DNA of 64,000 nucleotides from an uncultured Candidatus Saccharibacteria bacterium (GTDB taxonomy: Bacteria; Patescibacteriota; Minisyncoccia; 2-02-FULL-40-12; GWA2-44-9), in contig CAYUJB010000002.1 of assembly GCA_964444955.1 (NCBI GenBank), positions 972 through 64,971 on the forward strand. The letters run 5' to 3'. The translations under genes and the position numbers were made by a program. The notes under the pieces were generated by a model, which was not told where the DNA came from, searched no databases, and was given only the letters and a program-made list of their open reading frames with translations. The stretch's first letter is position 1; every line of letters begins with the position of its first letter. Positions 4,770-60,047 of the stretch are shown here, one piece after another.

Positions 4770-4795
4770 AAGAGCCCATCCGGGCTCTTTTGGTT
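4770..4795 (+). terminator. Rho-independent terminator after rplU
   Basis: GAGCCCATCCGGGCTC hairpin followed by TTTTGG. Confidence 0.7.
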
Positions 4796-4796
4796 A

Positions 4797-5283
4797 TTGA
4801 TGTTCCGCTCCCTTTCCCACTCTCCGACTCGTCAGTTCGCACAATGAGTGACAGCCTGTCCGCATCACAGGCGAAGCATCCGAATCTCCGCATTCCATCC
4901 CGCCTCTGGCGGGATGTCGGTGCTCCGGTCATGCGGATGCTCGCCGATGCGGACTACGACTGTCATCTGATATGTACTCACCCGCTGTACTATGACTCGC
5001 TTGGAGAGTGGGGAAGAGTCGCGTCGCATACACCCACCAACAAGTCGATGCGCATTCTTTTGGCTTAGGTATATCCTTTTTGAGCGACGGGTACCCGTGA
5101 CATCAATTGGCATAGTATGCGGGTTCGCACATATACAGCGACATTCGTTATCCAGGTCGCAGATAGCCGCATGACCGGAGCATAAAGCCGTAGGCGCCTG
5201 CGGAGATTCGGATATCGTATACCTGGATAGAATGTCGTTCGAATGCGAACTGACAAGTGAAGTTATGGGTAAACGGAGCGAGA
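4797..5283. repeat. Noncoding structured/repeat element, copy 1 (paralog of 60048-60430); candidate large ncRNA or MITE-like element
   Basis: No credible ORF. Three nested perfect long-range inverted pairs: 4831-4841/5244-5254 (11 bp), 4878-4892/5199-5213 (15 bp) and 4921-4936/5167-5182 (16 bp). Local hairpin CCCGCC-TCT-GGCGGG. Blocks 4871-4896 and 4915-4944 are 100% identical to the reverse complement of 60336-60361 and 60279-60308. Confidence 0.6.
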
Positions 5284-49280: not shown

Positions 49281-51278
49281 CTAAGGAGTGGAGGTCGGAT
49301 AGACAACCTGAATGTCGATTTTGCTGGTTTTTGCGGGTACTGAACGCACCCAAAACGGGGACAACGTGACTGTGGCGGATTCAACGCCTTCGCGATTATG
49401 GAAGAAATCGCGAACACCGACTGAGCTTTTGCCTGCTATATCCCTGCGTATTGCATCAATGTCGATGGGTGCATATCCTTTCCCGGTGATGCCGACCGTG
49501 AAGGCGAGCGTTCCCAGATCGGATTTGAAGGTGATATCGGTGTATGTGAGCTTATGCTGATCAACCAGCACAACCTGTCGATCTTTTTTTAACATCGTGC
49601 GTGCAATGAGCTCATGTAAATCAGCGGTACGAAATGCGATTGTTTTGAGTGTCGCAGTGACCGTTACTTTTACCTCGCTGGCGGGGTTATCAACGAGCGC
49701 CGAGCTGGTAACATCAGAGATTACTGGAGCGTCCGCGTTGAGCACCATGAAATCTGCTCCTTGAGCCGTAATAGCGGTAGCGACTTGATCCTTTGCAAGC
49801 TGAATTGCTGCAGTCTTGGCGGCGTCATAATCAGCCTGCGTCACAATAACGGAAGGTCCAGATGCCCCGCCAGACATGGGAGCATCAGAAATGCCGTAGA
49901 ATGTCTGCACCTTATTGGTGTCCCCTTTTTCTTTGAAAGCCACAATAATAAAACGCCCAGCCGGAACGTTGTACTCAGTGCCGGGGGCGTCAGCTATGAC
50001 ATCAACAGTAATCTTACCCGCAACAGTCTTGCCTGCGTTCGTGGAACTGCCGGGTACTGTCACCGACTGCAGCGTACGGAATATCTTGCCGTCGCTGGTA
50101 CCAAATCGTGTGTTCGTAACCAAAGCTTGCGGCGAAGATGAGTACTCATTATAGACAGTGATTTTGCCACGAGCTTTGGAGGCAACATCGCGCTTCCCCG
50201 TAGCAGCTACAGTGTGTTCAGTCGTTTTGGTCACCTCGACAAGCTGCCCAGGAATTTTTCCAAATGCATCATCAATAGCGCTCACCGCATCCGATGCTTG
50301 CACCGAGATTTCGGTGTCGACTGCCGAGCTGGTCGGCGTGAGCGCAACGCGCGCTTTGCCGGTCATGAGATACACAACGCCCGCAAGCACAATAATCGCC
50401 GCGAGAAGTATCATACCCGCCATACGCTTCGGAGCAGAGCCAGAAGTTGCGCTACGTGTTGCGCGGCGGAAAAGTGAGGGTTCAGTGGAGTGAGTGGCAT
50501 CTTTAGCCTTCATGCCACGCCAAACGGTATCGATATAGTCCGAACCAGCTGCGAGAGCGGCATCTTCTGAGGATAGTCCGCGCTGAACAGGCACAGGAGC
50601 TGCTCGTTCGGACTTTGACGCAGGAGTGAGGGTACGGGCTGGAGCACCGATGCGCACACCATCAACATCGCTCGCCTTGGGCACCCGTCGCGCGCCTGCT
50701 TTGGGAGCAGCGGCAAGGGTAGCTACAGCTCGAGCACCCGAAGATCCGATCAAATCTGCATCATCACCCACCGTAAGGTCCGATTCTTTTGGTTCATCGG
50801 CGAGACCGTCACCATCTTCATCCACGCGGTTACCCTCGTCATCCAGGATACGCATATTGCGTAGTGGCTCATCGTCGTTGGACTCTTGCGGATCAGAGCC
50901 CTGTGTTTGGTCCGATGTGAGTGGCACATCACCAAGATCTGCGCCGTCATCCATATCAGGAATACTGAAATCAGTAGGGATTGCCGATCGCGCAAGTGTC
51001 GCCGTTTTCTTAGCTGTTTTACTTGCACCAGATGCCATAACGGTAAAACCAAACTTACGCGCTAACAGGGCTGTTTGAGGATTTGCAGTGAGAACCGAAA
51101 CTACCTTGCCGCCCTGTTGAGCTTCAGACGCAAACGCCGCGAAATGATCTTCGTGGCGAAAGAGCTTGCCTACGCGAGGCAGGACCAGGATAACCTCCAC
51201 TGCCGACGTCTTTTGAAATAGCTCAAGAATGTCGTTGAATGAATCATCCTTGAGGACATTAATAATTTTGACGCTCAT
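49281..51278 (-). CDS. Hypothetical 665-aa membrane protein (N-terminal cytoplasmic domain, acidic disordered linker, single TM, large C-terminal extracytoplasmic domain)
   Basis: TM segment MAGMILLAAIIVLAGVVYLMTG. D/E/G-rich low-complexity region at residues 100-280. No catalytic motifs. Confidence 0.55.
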   Translation of the reverse strand: MSVKIINVLKDDSFNDILELFQKTSAVEVILVLPRVGKLFRHEDHFAAFASEAQQGGKVVSVLTANPQTALLARKFGFTVMASGASKTAKKTATLARSAIPTDFSIPDMDDGADLGDVPLTSDQTQGSDPQESNDDEPLRNMRILDDEGNRVDEDGDGLADEPKESDLTVGDDADLIGSSGARAVATLAAAPKAGARRVPKASDVDGVRIGAPARTLTPASKSERAAPVPVQRGLSSEDAALAAGSDYIDTVWRGMKAKDATHSTEPSLFRRATRSATSGSAPKRMAGMILLAAIIVLAGVVYLMTGKARVALTPTSSAVDTEISVQASDAVSAIDDAFGKIPGQLVEVTKTTEHTVAATGKRDVASKARGKITVYNEYSSSPQALVTNTRFGTSDGKIFRTLQSVTVPGSSTNAGKTVAGKITVDVIADAPGTEYNVPAGRFIIVAFKEKGDTNKVQTFYGISDAPMSGGASGPSVIVTQADYDAAKTAAIQLAKDQVATAITAQGADFMVLNADAPVISDVTSSALVDNPASEVKVTVTATLKTIAFRTADLHELIARTMLKKDRQVVLVDQHKLTYTDITFKSDLGTLAFTVGITGKGYAPIDIDAIRRDIAGKSSVGVRDFFHNREGVESATVTLSPFWVRSVPAKTSKIDIQVVYPTSTP

Positions 51279-57455: not shown

Positions 57456-57869
57456 TCAGATACAATTACCGATCCCACTGGAGAGAAATGGATACGCTTC
57501 CGTTGGCTCACCGTATATCGCTCGGAAGCCAAGCAACACAGCCGCTTCGACTCTGTAGGTAGTACCCACGACTGCACACGTACTAACTCCCGGGTAAAAG
57601 ATCAAATTCTGAATTCGAACGCCTTTGTACCTGAATACCCGACCAGCAACAATATCAGTGCGCAGAGATCTCCCACGATCGCCACCGATCCACACAACGC
57701 CTGAAGCGGCGAGCTTTTCAACTTCCTGAGCGTCGTAGTAAGAATCCGGGCGCGACGCTTCCGGGTTTGCGGGAACGCGGTATTGCAGTAATAGTTTTTG
57801 CACTCGCTCGACCGTAGCGAACGGATTGAGCGCCAACCACCACAACCGAATCCAGTAGCCAATCGGCAT
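57456..57869 (-). CDS. Hypothetical protein (possibly DUF218/YdcF-like)
   Basis: Weak resemblance only (VVWIGGDRGRS ... GVSTCAVVGTTYRVEAAVLLGFRA). Confidence 0.4.
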   Translation of the reverse strand: MPIGYWIRLWWLALNPFATVERVQKLLLQYRVPANPEASRPDSYYDAQEVEKLAASGVVWIGGDRGRSLRTDIVAGRVFRYKGVRIQNLIFYPGVSTCAVVGTTYRVEAAVLLGFRAIYGEPTEAYPFLSSGIGNCI

Positions 57870-58337: not shown

Positions 58338-58802
58338 TTAGTGAATATACCAGTCGTACGGCGTAATGCCCGTCACGGTCTTGCCCGGTTCAACCGTGAT
58401 AACTATTTTGCCGTGGTCCTTGCACTCATACATGAGGCCGCAGGTGACATACTTCGTATAGTAGGCGCGATACTCGCCCAAGTCACTACCGATGGCACCC
58501 GGATCTTTGACCTTCGCCGAAACATAATATTGACCAGGAGCAACCTGCAGCGCCCATGCAGGAGCTGTAAGTTGGGGATCACCCGCCGGAACAACAACGC
58601 AAGTCTCAGCGCCACCAGAGACTGGCTCCGCGCAGACGATCTGCTCAGGAAGATACTCACTGGGATAGTTGGTCGAACCCTCGATGGTTCCGGTAGCTAT
58701 TGATGCAGGTTGAAGTTGTGTGCCCACAAACCAGGCAACAACAGAGATGATCACTACGCCGATAGAAACTTTGAGGGTGTATTTCAATAGCTCGGGAGTC
58801 AT
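58338..58802 (-). CDS. Hypothetical exported protein
   Basis: N-terminal TM or signal sequence. Cys-containing secreted domain. No motif. Confidence 0.45.
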   Translation of the reverse strand: MTPELLKYTLKVSIGVVIISVVAWFVGTQLQPASIATGTIEGSTNYPSEYLPEQIVCAEPVSGGAETCVVVPAGDPQLTAPAWALQVAPGQYYVSAKVKDPGAIGSDLGEYRAYYTKYVTCGLMYECKDHGKIVITVEPGKTVTGITPYDWYIH

Positions 58803-58854
58803 TGCGAATGTGTCAGAATTCTGTTATAATTTCCCAAGAAGCGCAAGTTGACAT

Positions 58855-58927
58855 GGGGACTATGGTGAAGCGGTTATCACAGCGCTCTGTGGCAGCGCGG
58901 TCACGGGTTCGATTCCCGTTAGTCCCC
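58855..58927 (+). tRNA. tRNA-His (anticodon GTG) with encoded G-1 pairing to C73
   Basis: Manual cloverleaf: G-1 plus acceptor GGGACTA/TAGTCCC, U8, D-stem GTGA/TCAC, anticodon stem GCGCT/AGCGC, loop CTGTGGC, 4-nt variable loop, T-arm ACGGG-TTCGATT-CCCGT, discriminator C. Confidence 0.8.
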
Positions 58928-58929
58928 CA

Positions 58930-59135
58930 CTCAAAAGAAAAACCTTCGCGAATGTGAGGGTTTTTCTTTTGCTCGGACTAACGGGAATCGAACTGGAGAG
59001 GGGTCGGGAGAGGTGCGCCTCTCCCGTGGTGGAAGTACTGAAACCGCATGGTTTCAGAAAGTGAGGGCGAGAATAGCCGAAGGCAATCGAGCCCGACACG
59101 CGTGAGATAGCGAAGCGTCCCGTTAGTCCCCCATG
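58930..59135. repeat. tRNA-His 3'-end-derived repeat segment: inverted 19-nt copy (58975-58993) and 16-nt direct copy (59118-59133) of the tRNA T-arm/acceptor flank a hairpin-rich insert of about 190 bp
   Basis: The direct repeat TCCCGTTAGTCCCCCA occurs at 58914-58929 and 59118-59133. GGACTAACGGGAATCGAAC is the reverse complement of tRNA positions 58907-58925. The interior has perfect hairpins CTGAAACC-GCAT-GGTTTCAG and CGGGAGAGG-TGCG-CCTCTCCCG. Confidence 0.5.
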
Positions 59136-59198
59136 AACAAAGACGTCCCCCATTGATGGGGCGTTTTTGTTCCTCTGGATGAGTAGCGGGAATCGATG

Positions 59199-60047
59199 CT
59201 ACTTTCCCAGCCAACGGGTGAAGATGCCTGTCGAGAGTAGACGACCACTCCGTTGCTGGAGACACAGCTGTCCGGCTTCCAGCTTCCCCGCGCGACCCTT
59301 AAGTGTGTCTTCGAGGAGATTGTGGATGGCGAGCTCAGAGGTATTGGTGGCGTACGCGTTGATGATGAGAAATTTTGCCTGCGGTGATAGGAGCGTCACA
59401 CAATCGCGCACCAACGCTGGCATTTGTTCGTTGAACTTCCAAATCTTTCCGGTCGGTGAATGTCCAAACGCGGGTGGGTCCATCACAATTCCCTCGTACT
59501 GAGCCCCCCGCTTCACTTCATTTTTTACAAACTTTGCAGCATCTTCGAGCATCCAACGGATAGAATCGACGGGAAGCTTGTTGAGATCTTGGTTTTCTTT
59601 CGCCCATCCAATCGCAGGTCGTGATGCGTCGACATGCGTGACGAATGAACCACGAATCGTCAGCCATGCCGTAGCCGCGCCTGTGTACGCAAAGAGATTG
59701 AGCACACGTGGTTTCTCCAGTCCCGCGAGCGCATCAGACATGAGCTTCCAGTGGGCTGCCTGCTCGGGGAAAACACCTGTGTGCTTAAAGTTCATAGGAC
59801 GTACTCGTAGCTTCATATCGTGAAACGCCATGTCCCACGATTCAGGAAGGGTTGTGCGCATCTGCCAGGCATCATCGCGAAAAATAGCATCTGCACCATC
59901 CCAGATTTCTTTGGGTTCACTGCGCGCCCAAATGGTCTGCGGATCGGGTCGCGCCAATACAAACTCGCCCCATCGCTCGAGGCGATACCCATCGCCCGAA
60001 TCGAGGAGCTGAAAATCGGAAAACTCTTTCGCACCATCCATGTACAT
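59199..60047 (-). CDS. Class I SAM-dependent rRNA (m5C) methyltransferase, RlmI/YccW-like
   Basis: LNLFAYTGAATAWL (SAM motif I) and DPPAFG motifs. The upstream 68 codons of the six-frame ORF fall in the repeat element and are Arg/Cys-rich, so the start is set at MYMDGAKE. Confidence 0.75.
   Translation of the reverse strand: MYMDGAKEFSDFQLLDSGDGYRLERWGEFVLARPDPQTIWARSEPKEIWDGADAIFRDDAWQMRTTLPESWDMAFHDMKLRVRPMNFKHTGVFPEQAAHWKLMSDALAGLEKPRVLNLFAYTGAATAWLTIRGSFVTHVDASRPAIGWAKENQDLNKLPVDSIRWMLEDAAKFVKNEVKRGAQYEGIVMDPPAFGHSPTGKIWKFNEQMPALVRDCVTLLSPQAKFLIINAYATNTSELAIHNLLEDTLKGRAGKLEAGQLCLQQRSGRLLSTGIFTRWLGK

Follow-up and report, generated by a model that had tools for sequence, protein, structure and literature searches.

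The 64,000-nucleotide stretch of bacterial DNA analyzed here (hereafter the window) carries, just downstream of its gene for tRNA-His, a compact element whose two ends are literal copies of the 3′ end of that same tRNA. Comparison with homologues from three related lineages reveals that this element, at positions 58975 to 59133, is under purifying selection in all four lineages, and that its pattern of conservation is the signature of a maintained structure rather than of a decaying scar. The reading we favor, to which we assign a probability of roughly 45%, is that these positions form a functional structured nucleic-acid element of about 160 nucleotides, specifically a small structured RNA that is derived from tRNA-His and closed by a 12-bp helix of acceptor and T-stem sequence. 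A first-pass annotation made from the letters of the DNA had offered three explanations for the segment: the footprint of an excised or decayed integrative element, a tRNA-derived miniature inverted-repeat transposable element (MITE), or a small structured RNA with a tRNA-like minihelix end. Among these, the structured RNA fits best, the integration footprint survives only in the form of an excisable cassette, and the MITE fails.

Repeats and hairpins downstream of tRNA-His

The 16-nt sequence TCCCGTTAGTCCCCCA, which covers the 3′ end of tRNA-His, has exactly two occurrences in the 64 kb, 58914-58929 and 59118-59133, which are separated by 188 bp. The chance expectation for an exact 16-mer repeat is about 3e-5. 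An inverted copy, GGACTAACGGGAATCGAAC, lies at 58975-58993 and is 100% complementary to 58907-58925. Both arrangements had been recognized in the first-pass annotation, and both are exact. Because the second copy of the direct repeat and the inverted copy overlap in content, the ends of the element form a perfect inverted repeat, in which the first 12 nt of the inverted copy (58975-58986) are 100% complementary to 59118-59129. The terminal inverted repeats originally described are therefore present, with a length of 12 bp instead of 11 bp, and they bracket an interior of 131 bp.

The two interior hairpin stems of 9 and 8 bp that were noted at the outset are both perfect (Table 1). A GCC-UUCG-GGC tetraloop said to be encoded on the minus strand does not exist as such, since the actual sequence is GCCUUCGGC (9 nt), which can form either a stem of 3 bp around a UUC triloop or one C-G pair that closes UUCG. 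Relative to shuffled sequences, the fold of the window element gives z-scores of -4.3 on the minus strand and -3.1 on the plus strand.

We propose that the two ends of the element pair as opposite strands of a helix of 12 bp whose sequence is that of tRNA-His positions 60-71, and that this closing helix would bound a junction with three hairpins and conserved single-stranded linkers. An RNA of this form may have descended from the 3′ half of tRNA-His, and its architecture would also explain the direct repeats. If the 3′ strand of the RNA copies the T-loop, T-stem and acceptor of the tRNA, then its 5′ strand reads, on the other strand of the DNA, as a direct repeat of the tRNA end. Thus, the cassette composed of the element and the terminator hairpin A that precedes it (hereafter terminator A, as distinct from hairpin A of the interior) would be bracketed by direct repeats because one strand of the closing helix must read as the tRNA 3′ end, and no integrase is needed. 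The 16-nt repeats also mean that this cassette can be lost precisely, leaving tRNA-His intact.

Further tRNA-like sequence is found beyond the second direct repeat. The motif GCGGGAATCGA, a degenerate T-arm fragment that had been assigned to 59184-59194, does exist, at 59186-59196, as part of a second, 16-nt version of the inverted repeat (14 of 16 positions identical) placed after a second hairpin. A unit made of the tRNA 3′ end, a terminator-like hairpin and an inverted T-arm copy is therefore present twice, 204-205 bp apart, and the degenerate copy at 59176-59196 is probably the remnant of an older unit. No comparable repeat architecture was found at the other three tRNAs of the window.

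Conservation among relatives and polymorphism within one population

Relatives were reached by walking outward through homologues of the methyltransferase encoded next to the element. In three of the loci obtained in this way (L018, L026 and L034), a homologous element lies just past the tRNA-His terminator, in the same position and orientation as in the window, and the comparisons of the element rest on these four carriers. Subtype 1 comprises the window and L018, a contig of 270 kb from the Joint Genome Institute (JGI) whose methyltransferase is 83% identical to that of the window. Downstream of tRNA-His, L018 has a bidirectional terminator of unrelated sequence, then the same inverted copy and an interior homologous to that of the window, and finally a distal direct repeat of 15 nt; both members of the subtype keep the 12-bp helix together with the adjoining CCCA. 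Subtype 2 is represented by L026 and L034, whose methyltransferases are 75-77% identical to that of the window and 90% identical to each other. Its more divergent element lacks the long acceptor part and the distal direct repeat, and is closed by ACGGG/CCCGU. Common to both subtypes are the segment (U)GUACGGGUCUCGCCYUC, two perfect hairpins at equal positions, GGUUCGAUCCC(C)GUU and then a terminator. All four loci carry the T-loop sequence GUUCGAUYCCCGUU, and in all four the element is followed by a terminator that has a U-tract on each strand.

Between the window and L018, the fourfold-degenerate sites of the methyltransferase gene are only 40% identical and thus near saturation, a level of synonymous change equal to that between L026 and L034 (41%). 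The terminator between tRNA and element is unalignable in the same pair of loci; indeed, a hairpin always occupies the position of terminator A in L018, L026 and L034, with a wholly different sequence in each. In contrast, the element itself differs between the window and L018, its closest homologue, by 19 substitutions in 159 aligned bases and one 8-nt indel (88% identity, and 85-88% for the interior), which corresponds to a rate of change about 5 times slower than that of synonymous sites. The substitutions affect 6 of 88 stem positions (7%), 6 of 52 positions in junctions and linkers (12%), and 7 of 19 positions in hairpin loops (37%). One stem pair has changed from G-C to A-U, which is the one compensatory pair between these two loci.

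The more distant homologues retain the architecture with other sequences. Both hairpins are kept in L026 and L034 between UCUCGCCYUC and GUUCGAUYCC, with entirely different stems of 8-10 bp and identical junction motifs, and fold z-scores relative to shuffled sequences range from -2.6 to -7.1 over the four loci. In addition, the variable base of the T-loop-like sequence matches the resident tRNA-His in each lineage, with GAUUCCCG accompanying a U in the tRNA and GAUCCCCG a C. This agreement indicates that the sequence and the adjacent gene either undergo gene conversion or are held identical by selection. When the four cores were aligned by MAFFT and analyzed by RNAalifold, the hairpins did not align correctly and no consensus of use was obtained.

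The loop of hairpin A (59046-59049 in the window) reads GCAT in the window and ATGC in L018. These are exact reverse complements flanked by identical stems, which indicates that the whole hairpin was inverted in a single event.

Contigs from the same population were found in public assemblies by way of an exact match to a neighboring protein of 154 amino acids. One of them, L002 (ERR3094293), matches the window at 100% identity for the 3595 nt that end at position 58929 and then continues with TGAACAAAGACGTC, which equals window positions 59134-59147. The block 58930-59133 is therefore exactly absent from an otherwise identical strain, and hairpin B′ directly follows tRNA-His in this empty allele. 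The k-mers that span the L002 junction take in a base specific to the tRNA on their left side and 14 unique bases on their right side, so that the junction derives from real reads and not from an assembly path through the 16-nt repeat, although a chimera in the library is still conceivable. Contigs of four other assemblies from this population break inside the block or at its edge (58931, 58990, 59031 and 59084), as is expected if both alleles coexist. A circular or tandem form of the block would have a junction reading GCGAAGCG-TCCCGTTAGTCCCCCA-CTCAAAAG, which can also be written as ...GAGATAGCGAAGCG-TCCCGTTAGTCCCCCA-CTCAAAAGAAAAACC.

Thus, the empty site that the first-pass annotation had proposed to look for does exist, with tRNA-His joined directly to 59134 in L002. 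Empty loci are also found in eight related lineages (L020, L021, L022/L025, L023, L027, L031, L032 and L033), in which tRNA-His lacks a second T-loop-like copy. The same annotation had reasoned that a conserved RNA would be recognized by related genomes all carrying the segment with covarying substitutions. Some relatives do carry it with structure-preserving changes, but most do not. Deletion by slippage or by recombination between the direct repeats could produce such a precise loss, and would account both for the empty allele and for the patchy distribution among relatives.

Several other observations concern these loci. Even in the empty allele, a hairpin and the degenerate inverted T-arm copy remain beside tRNA-His (window 59134-59201). 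When read on the minus strand, this region (AUCGAUUCCCGCUACUCAUCCAGAGGA plus hairpin) is similar to the L026 element at its 3′ end (GGUUCGAUCCCCGUUCAGCAUCUCCAGGA plus terminator), a likeness judged by eye only that suggests the remnant of an older unit. At 1880-1905 of L018, given in the window's minus orientation, the tRNA 3′ end is partially copied a third time (TCCCGTTTACCTC), directly after the second repeat and just before the stop codon of the methyltransferase gene. Two independent Logan contigs, grouped as P0013, encode a methyltransferase 83% identical to that of L018, and both end 86 nt past its stop codon. This is the same type of assembly break as at the element of the window, and P0013 may be a further carrier of mixed alleles. 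Finally, L026 2536-3150 contains tRNA-Arg(tct), an open reading frame (ORF) for a membrane protein of about 140 amino acids, and then a nearly complete tRNA-Arg-like copy that is 79-81% identical and has a 6-nt anticodon loop. Here, within the same clade, two tRNA copies flank an insertion the size of a gene.

Weighing the competing explanations

The element sits immediately past the bidirectional terminator that it has in common with tRNA-His. If it is a small structured RNA, it might be transcribed convergently to tRNA-His and end at the shared terminator, or it might be a trailer of the tRNA-His transcript, and the tRNA-like minihelix would permit handling by tRNA-processing enzymes. The minus strand is favored by the shared bidirectional terminator, by a T-loop in the sense of the tRNA, and by the z-scores of the window. 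The tRNA-His-sense strand is favored by the z-scores of L026 (-7.1 versus -5.7) and L034 (-3.9 versus -2.6), by a tandem GA/GA beside the closing helix, by two pairs in L034 that are G-U in this sense and A-C in the opposite one, by the only detectable promoter and, in subtype 1, by the 12-bp helix being followed by C-CCA.

This conflict of strand signals is one of several points that weigh against our favored interpretation. A promoter scan and inspection revealed no convincing sigma-70 promoter upstream of the element on the minus strand, while the promoter of tRNA-His is canonical. Eight of 12 related lineages lack the element. In their host genes, L026 and L034 are more similar to each other than the window is to L018, yet they have no stem sequence in common, which is odd for simple vertical evolution. 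The additional partial copies of the tRNA 3′ end, at 59176-59196 in the window and as TCCCGTTTACC after the second repeat in L018, indicate repeated recombination events at this site. The evidence from covariation is qualitative and comes from four homologues. Of the three original readings, a structured RNA is the one that the conservation of the element supports best.

The main alternative, though a rather unlikely one, is that the block is a miniature non-autonomous cassette flanked by attachment (att) sites, similar to a cis-mobilizable element (CIME), and moved by a tRNA-His-specific recombinase encoded elsewhere, whether by a phage, an integrative element or the chromosome. Such a block would bring with it a replacement tRNA 3′ end and its own terminator, as do elements that target tRNAs, and its conserved hairpins would provide sites for recombination, accessory sites, or an att structure folded from a single strand as in integron attC or CTX-phi attP. 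This account is consistent with a direct repeat that spans the T-loop to the 3′ end of the tRNA, with an exact empty site in a 100%-identical strain, and with the patchy distribution in relatives. Furthermore, the sequence after the second repeat resembles the native tRNA-His terminator of the empty relative L023, the window (59176-96) and L018 both carry, on the distal side of the block, decayed copies of the tRNA end of the kind that tandem accretion would leave, and another tRNA-flanked insertion exists at tRNA-Arg in L026. However, no recombinase domain was detected by Pfam in 40 window ORFs scanned (in agreement with the first-pass annotation, which saw no integrase) or among the listed neighbors, the 204-bp block contains no ORF, and neither IMG/VR nor phage records provided a donor element. 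The element occurs once per locus, and the locus is always the same; L026 and L034 have no distal direct repeat; and deletion between short repeats explains the empty allele without an enzyme. Moreover, the in-block terminator has diverged to saturation between the window and L018 while the interior remains 85-88% identical, and therefore the block has not recently moved as a unit. The footprint of an excised element that was originally suggested thus finds support in the empty site, but a decaying scar does not agree with an element that is conserved and structurally maintained in three other lineages. The small-RNA and mobile-cassette explanations are not exclusive, because an RNA cassette may also be recombinationally mobile. 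Along these lines, it is conceivable, though we think it unlikely, that the element is a tiny, gene-less, tRNA-addressed cassette of a kind not previously described, formed by a structured RNA. Its closing helix, a literal copy of the acceptor/T-stem of tRNA-His, would serve both as a tRNA-mimicking handle and as homology for entry and exit at the 3′ end of tRNA-His, with no recombinase encoded.

We consider it improbable that the segment is instead a cis element of the tRNA-His transcription unit on the plus strand, reached by read-through of terminator A, and acting as a 3′ external-transcribed-spacer RNA or as a processing or insulating structure. In such a transcript, the 5′ 19 nt would be antisense to the 3′ half of the tRNA, and at the 3′ end RNase P could cleave a minihelix of 12 bp that precedes C-CCA, with the RNA ending at hairpin B′. 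The element does always lie downstream of tRNA-His in the same relative orientation, the strong promoter of tRNA-His is the only one found, and the element of the window is followed by a good terminator on the plus strand. Both the window and L018 retain the 12-bp helix plus CCCA, and subtype 2 folds better in the plus sense, with ACGGG/CCCGU, tandem GA/GA, UCG/CGA and the G-U pairs of L034. Yet a strong terminator separates tRNA and element at all four loci, L018 and L034 have no plus-strand terminator after the element, the minihelix-CCA feature is missing from L026 and L034, and the convergent neighbors leave no downstream gene to regulate. Far less probable still is a non-functional by-product, such as a decaying att scar, a tRNA-His pseudogene fragment or chance terminator-like palindromes between convergent genes. 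Although there is no match to a known RNA family, no promoter was found, most relatives lack the element, and relaxed ARAGORN settings produce inconsistent pseudo-cloverleaves only, this reading is already largely refuted by the conservation pattern. The element changes at about one-fifth of the synonymous rate, its loops are nearly saturated while its stems are intact, its hairpins are kept at fixed positions with replaced stems, and the likeness of its interior to tRNA-His beyond the ends is not significant. The least probable of these explanations, a tRNA-derived MITE mobilized by a transposase in trans, has in its favor the perfect 12-bp terminal inverted repeats around a 131-bp interior and the presence/absence polymorphism. 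It is nevertheless contradicted by the polymorphic block (58930-59133) not coinciding with the inverted-repeat block (58975-59129), by the lack of a target-site duplication (the inverted repeats are flanked by GCTC and CCCA), and by a direct repeat that coincides in part with the right inverted repeat and is 45 nt away from its left counterpart. In addition, there is a single copy in the 64 kb and the same locus in all carriers, an interior 20-mer (GCCCGACACGCGTGAGATAG) has no match in GTDB representative genomes or IMG/VR, and the 12 matches that the repeat pattern has in metagenomes come from unrelated repeats, whose interiors are unrelated as well and which have no tRNA.

Genomic setting, comparison with known systems and significance

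Searches for known families gave no match to the element. At E<=10 on either strand, no Rfam family covers 58994-59117 or is found in the L026 element, and the tRNA, transfer-messenger RNA (tmRNA) and Y RNA models give no match over the element. An intron-containing tRNA or a permuted tmRNA was rejected as an identity, as ARAGORN at an 80% threshold returned only mutually inconsistent calls (with a tmRNA call at one of the four loci) and the Rfam signals were noise. Homology of the interior to tRNA-His beyond the ends (CGGGCTCGATTGCC versus CGGGTTCGATTCCC, and a region upstream in L034) was likewise discarded when it proved not significant relative to shuffled sequences. The metagenome scan with GGACTAACGGG N100-130 CCCGTTAGTCC yielded 12 contigs that have the 11-nt ends in common with the element but telomere-like and GGACTATC-type interiors, and a degenerate two-block pattern in IMG/VR gave 85 matches, all of them ordinary tRNA genes or chance. 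Locus searches of IMG/VR based on the methyltransferase and blastn searches of phage records returned nothing, and a spurious 97-amino-acid ORF across the element, used as a protein query for more copies, had no match. A plus-strand ORF of 12 codons across hairpin A was judged coincidental; 3 of its 12 residues differ in L018. We found no description of such an element in the literature on the Candidate Phyla Radiation (CPR).

Table 1. Features of the tRNA-His locus (window coordinates)
Feature	Positions	Strand	Description
Sigma-70-type promoter of tRNA-His	58802-58830	+	TTGCGA-17-TATAAT with upstream TG; kept in L018, L020, L021-L023
tRNA-His(gtg)	58856-58928; encoded G-1 at 58855	+	ARAGORN; Rfam tRNA model 60.9 bits
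Direct repeat copy 1, TCCCGTTAGTCCCCCA	58914-58929	+	tRNA-His positions 60-73 plus CA
204-bp polymorphic block	58930-59133 (equivalent to 58914-59117 owing to the repeat)		Terminator A plus structured element; missing in L002
Terminator hairpin A	58932-58971	both (bidirectional)	A-tract, GC core, T-tract
Inverted copy GGACTAACGGGAATCGAAC	58975-58993		Exact copy of tRNA-His positions 53-71 (T-loop, T-stem 3′ strand, acceptor 3′ strand)
Element interior	58994-59117		Hairpin B, hairpin A, hairpin 3, conserved unpaired linkers including 59096-59117
Hairpin B	59005-59026		Perfect 9-bp stem, 59005-13/59018-26
Hairpin A (element interior)	59038-59057		Perfect 8-bp stem, 59038-45/59050-57
Hairpin 3	59065-59095		Imperfect
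Direct repeat copy 2, TCCCGTTAGTCCCCCA	59118-59133	+	59118-59129 is the second strand of the proposed 12-bp closing helix, followed by CCCA
Hairpin B′ (terminator-like)	59135-59172		Plus-strand terminator at 59148-59161 plus T-run
Degenerate second inverted T-arm/acceptor-like copy	59176-59196		81% complementary to the tRNA 3′ end
Class I S-adenosylmethionine-dependent (RlmI-like, PF10672) methyltransferase gene	59199-60041	-	Synteny anchor

The window is part of the core chromosome of a member of the Patescibacteria (CPR), with genes that include those for DnaB, CysRS, GltX, MreB, ribosomal proteins, AlaRS and MscL. Close homologues of the methyltransferase are labeled as Patescibacteria group, Ca. 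Paceibacterota, Ca. Yanofskybacteria or “Ca. Saccharibacteria.” The genomes of Patescibacteria are very small, and to our knowledge few regulatory RNAs have been described in them. The annotated neighbors of the element are the methyltransferase, MscL, AlaRS and an M3 peptidase, whereas the neighboring proteins of 154 and 137 amino acids matched no Pfam family. The genes flanking the element are convergent. Among the relatives, tRNA-His lies on the strand of the methyltransferase gene in L031 and L032 and is convergent with it in all others, and the genes between the two vary (dihydroorotate dehydrogenase, a 30-amino-acid membrane peptide, and DksA/TraR-like genes). The tRNA-His neighborhood is a rearrangement hot spot in this clade.

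Two regions elsewhere in the window also drew attention. About 490 nt at 4790-5280, downstream of a short gene and its terminator, contain no long ORF, and their best Rfam match reaches only E=0.84. A 665-amino-acid protein encoded at 49281-51278 on the minus strand, adjoining a UvrD/PD-(D/E)XK helicase-nuclease gene, has no Pfam match at E<=0.001 and a weak Baseplate_J match in precomputed annotation.

Features of the element recall several known systems. Folded recombination sites such as integron attC and CTX-phi attP are imperfect palindromes in which a stem reconstitutes a duplex copy of the target around a variable structured center, with structure conserved and sequence poorly so. Any likeness to such a single-strand site is purely speculative; the locus has no known integron integrase or Xer context, and unlike in attC the GTTAGTC found here does not fit the core GTTRRRY. 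As with MITEs, the element is about 155 bp long, hairpin-rich and bounded by perfect 12-bp terminal inverted repeats; in contrast to them, it is single-copy at a fixed locus, lacks a target-site duplication, and has polymorphic borders that differ from the borders of its repeats.

The accretion of tRNA-integrated elements and their gene-less derivatives, the CIMEs, has been reviewed (PMC5704250). The locus shares with attL/attR-flanked elements and CIMEs a direct repeat of the tRNA 3′ end from T-loop to terminus, an intact tRNA, an empty site in a sister strain, and decayed copies that suggest accretion. It departs from them in the mere 188 bp between the repeats, with no integrase or other gene, in its conserved multi-hairpin interior, in an extra exact inverted copy of the tRNA end, and in the absence of the distal repeat from two of the four homologues.

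The YrlA RNA of M. smegmatis shows that RNAs of this type can be substrates for RNase P and also for the enzyme that adds CCA (PMC4201824). Like YrlA and tmRNA, the element is predicted to place the T-loop sequence GUUCGAUYC and an acceptor-like helix in a larger structured RNA, the helix being a 12-bp acceptor-plus-T-stem in the window and L018 and only ACGGG/CCCGU in L026 and L034. Unlike them, it has no self-contained T stem-loop or D-arm, and both of its ends are literal copies of the adjacent tRNA-His. No neighbor matched a Pfam family pointing to a Ro60 gene in scans that included 57456-57869, and there is no tmRNA-type tag reading frame.

The element is best described as a lineage-restricted candidate for a new RNA or cassette. 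The locus would provide a clean natural example of how short repeats of a tRNA end allow DNA to be gained or lost precisely within one population. If it proves to be only a lineage-restricted small RNA, the finding would be of moderate, specialist interest. Should the cassette prove mobile, no smaller tRNA-targeted integrative unit would be known, and it would point to recombinases that are active in these organisms. If our favored interpretation is correct, a conserved element built from a tRNA gene, and co-evolving with it, would constitute a new family of tRNA-derived RNAs.

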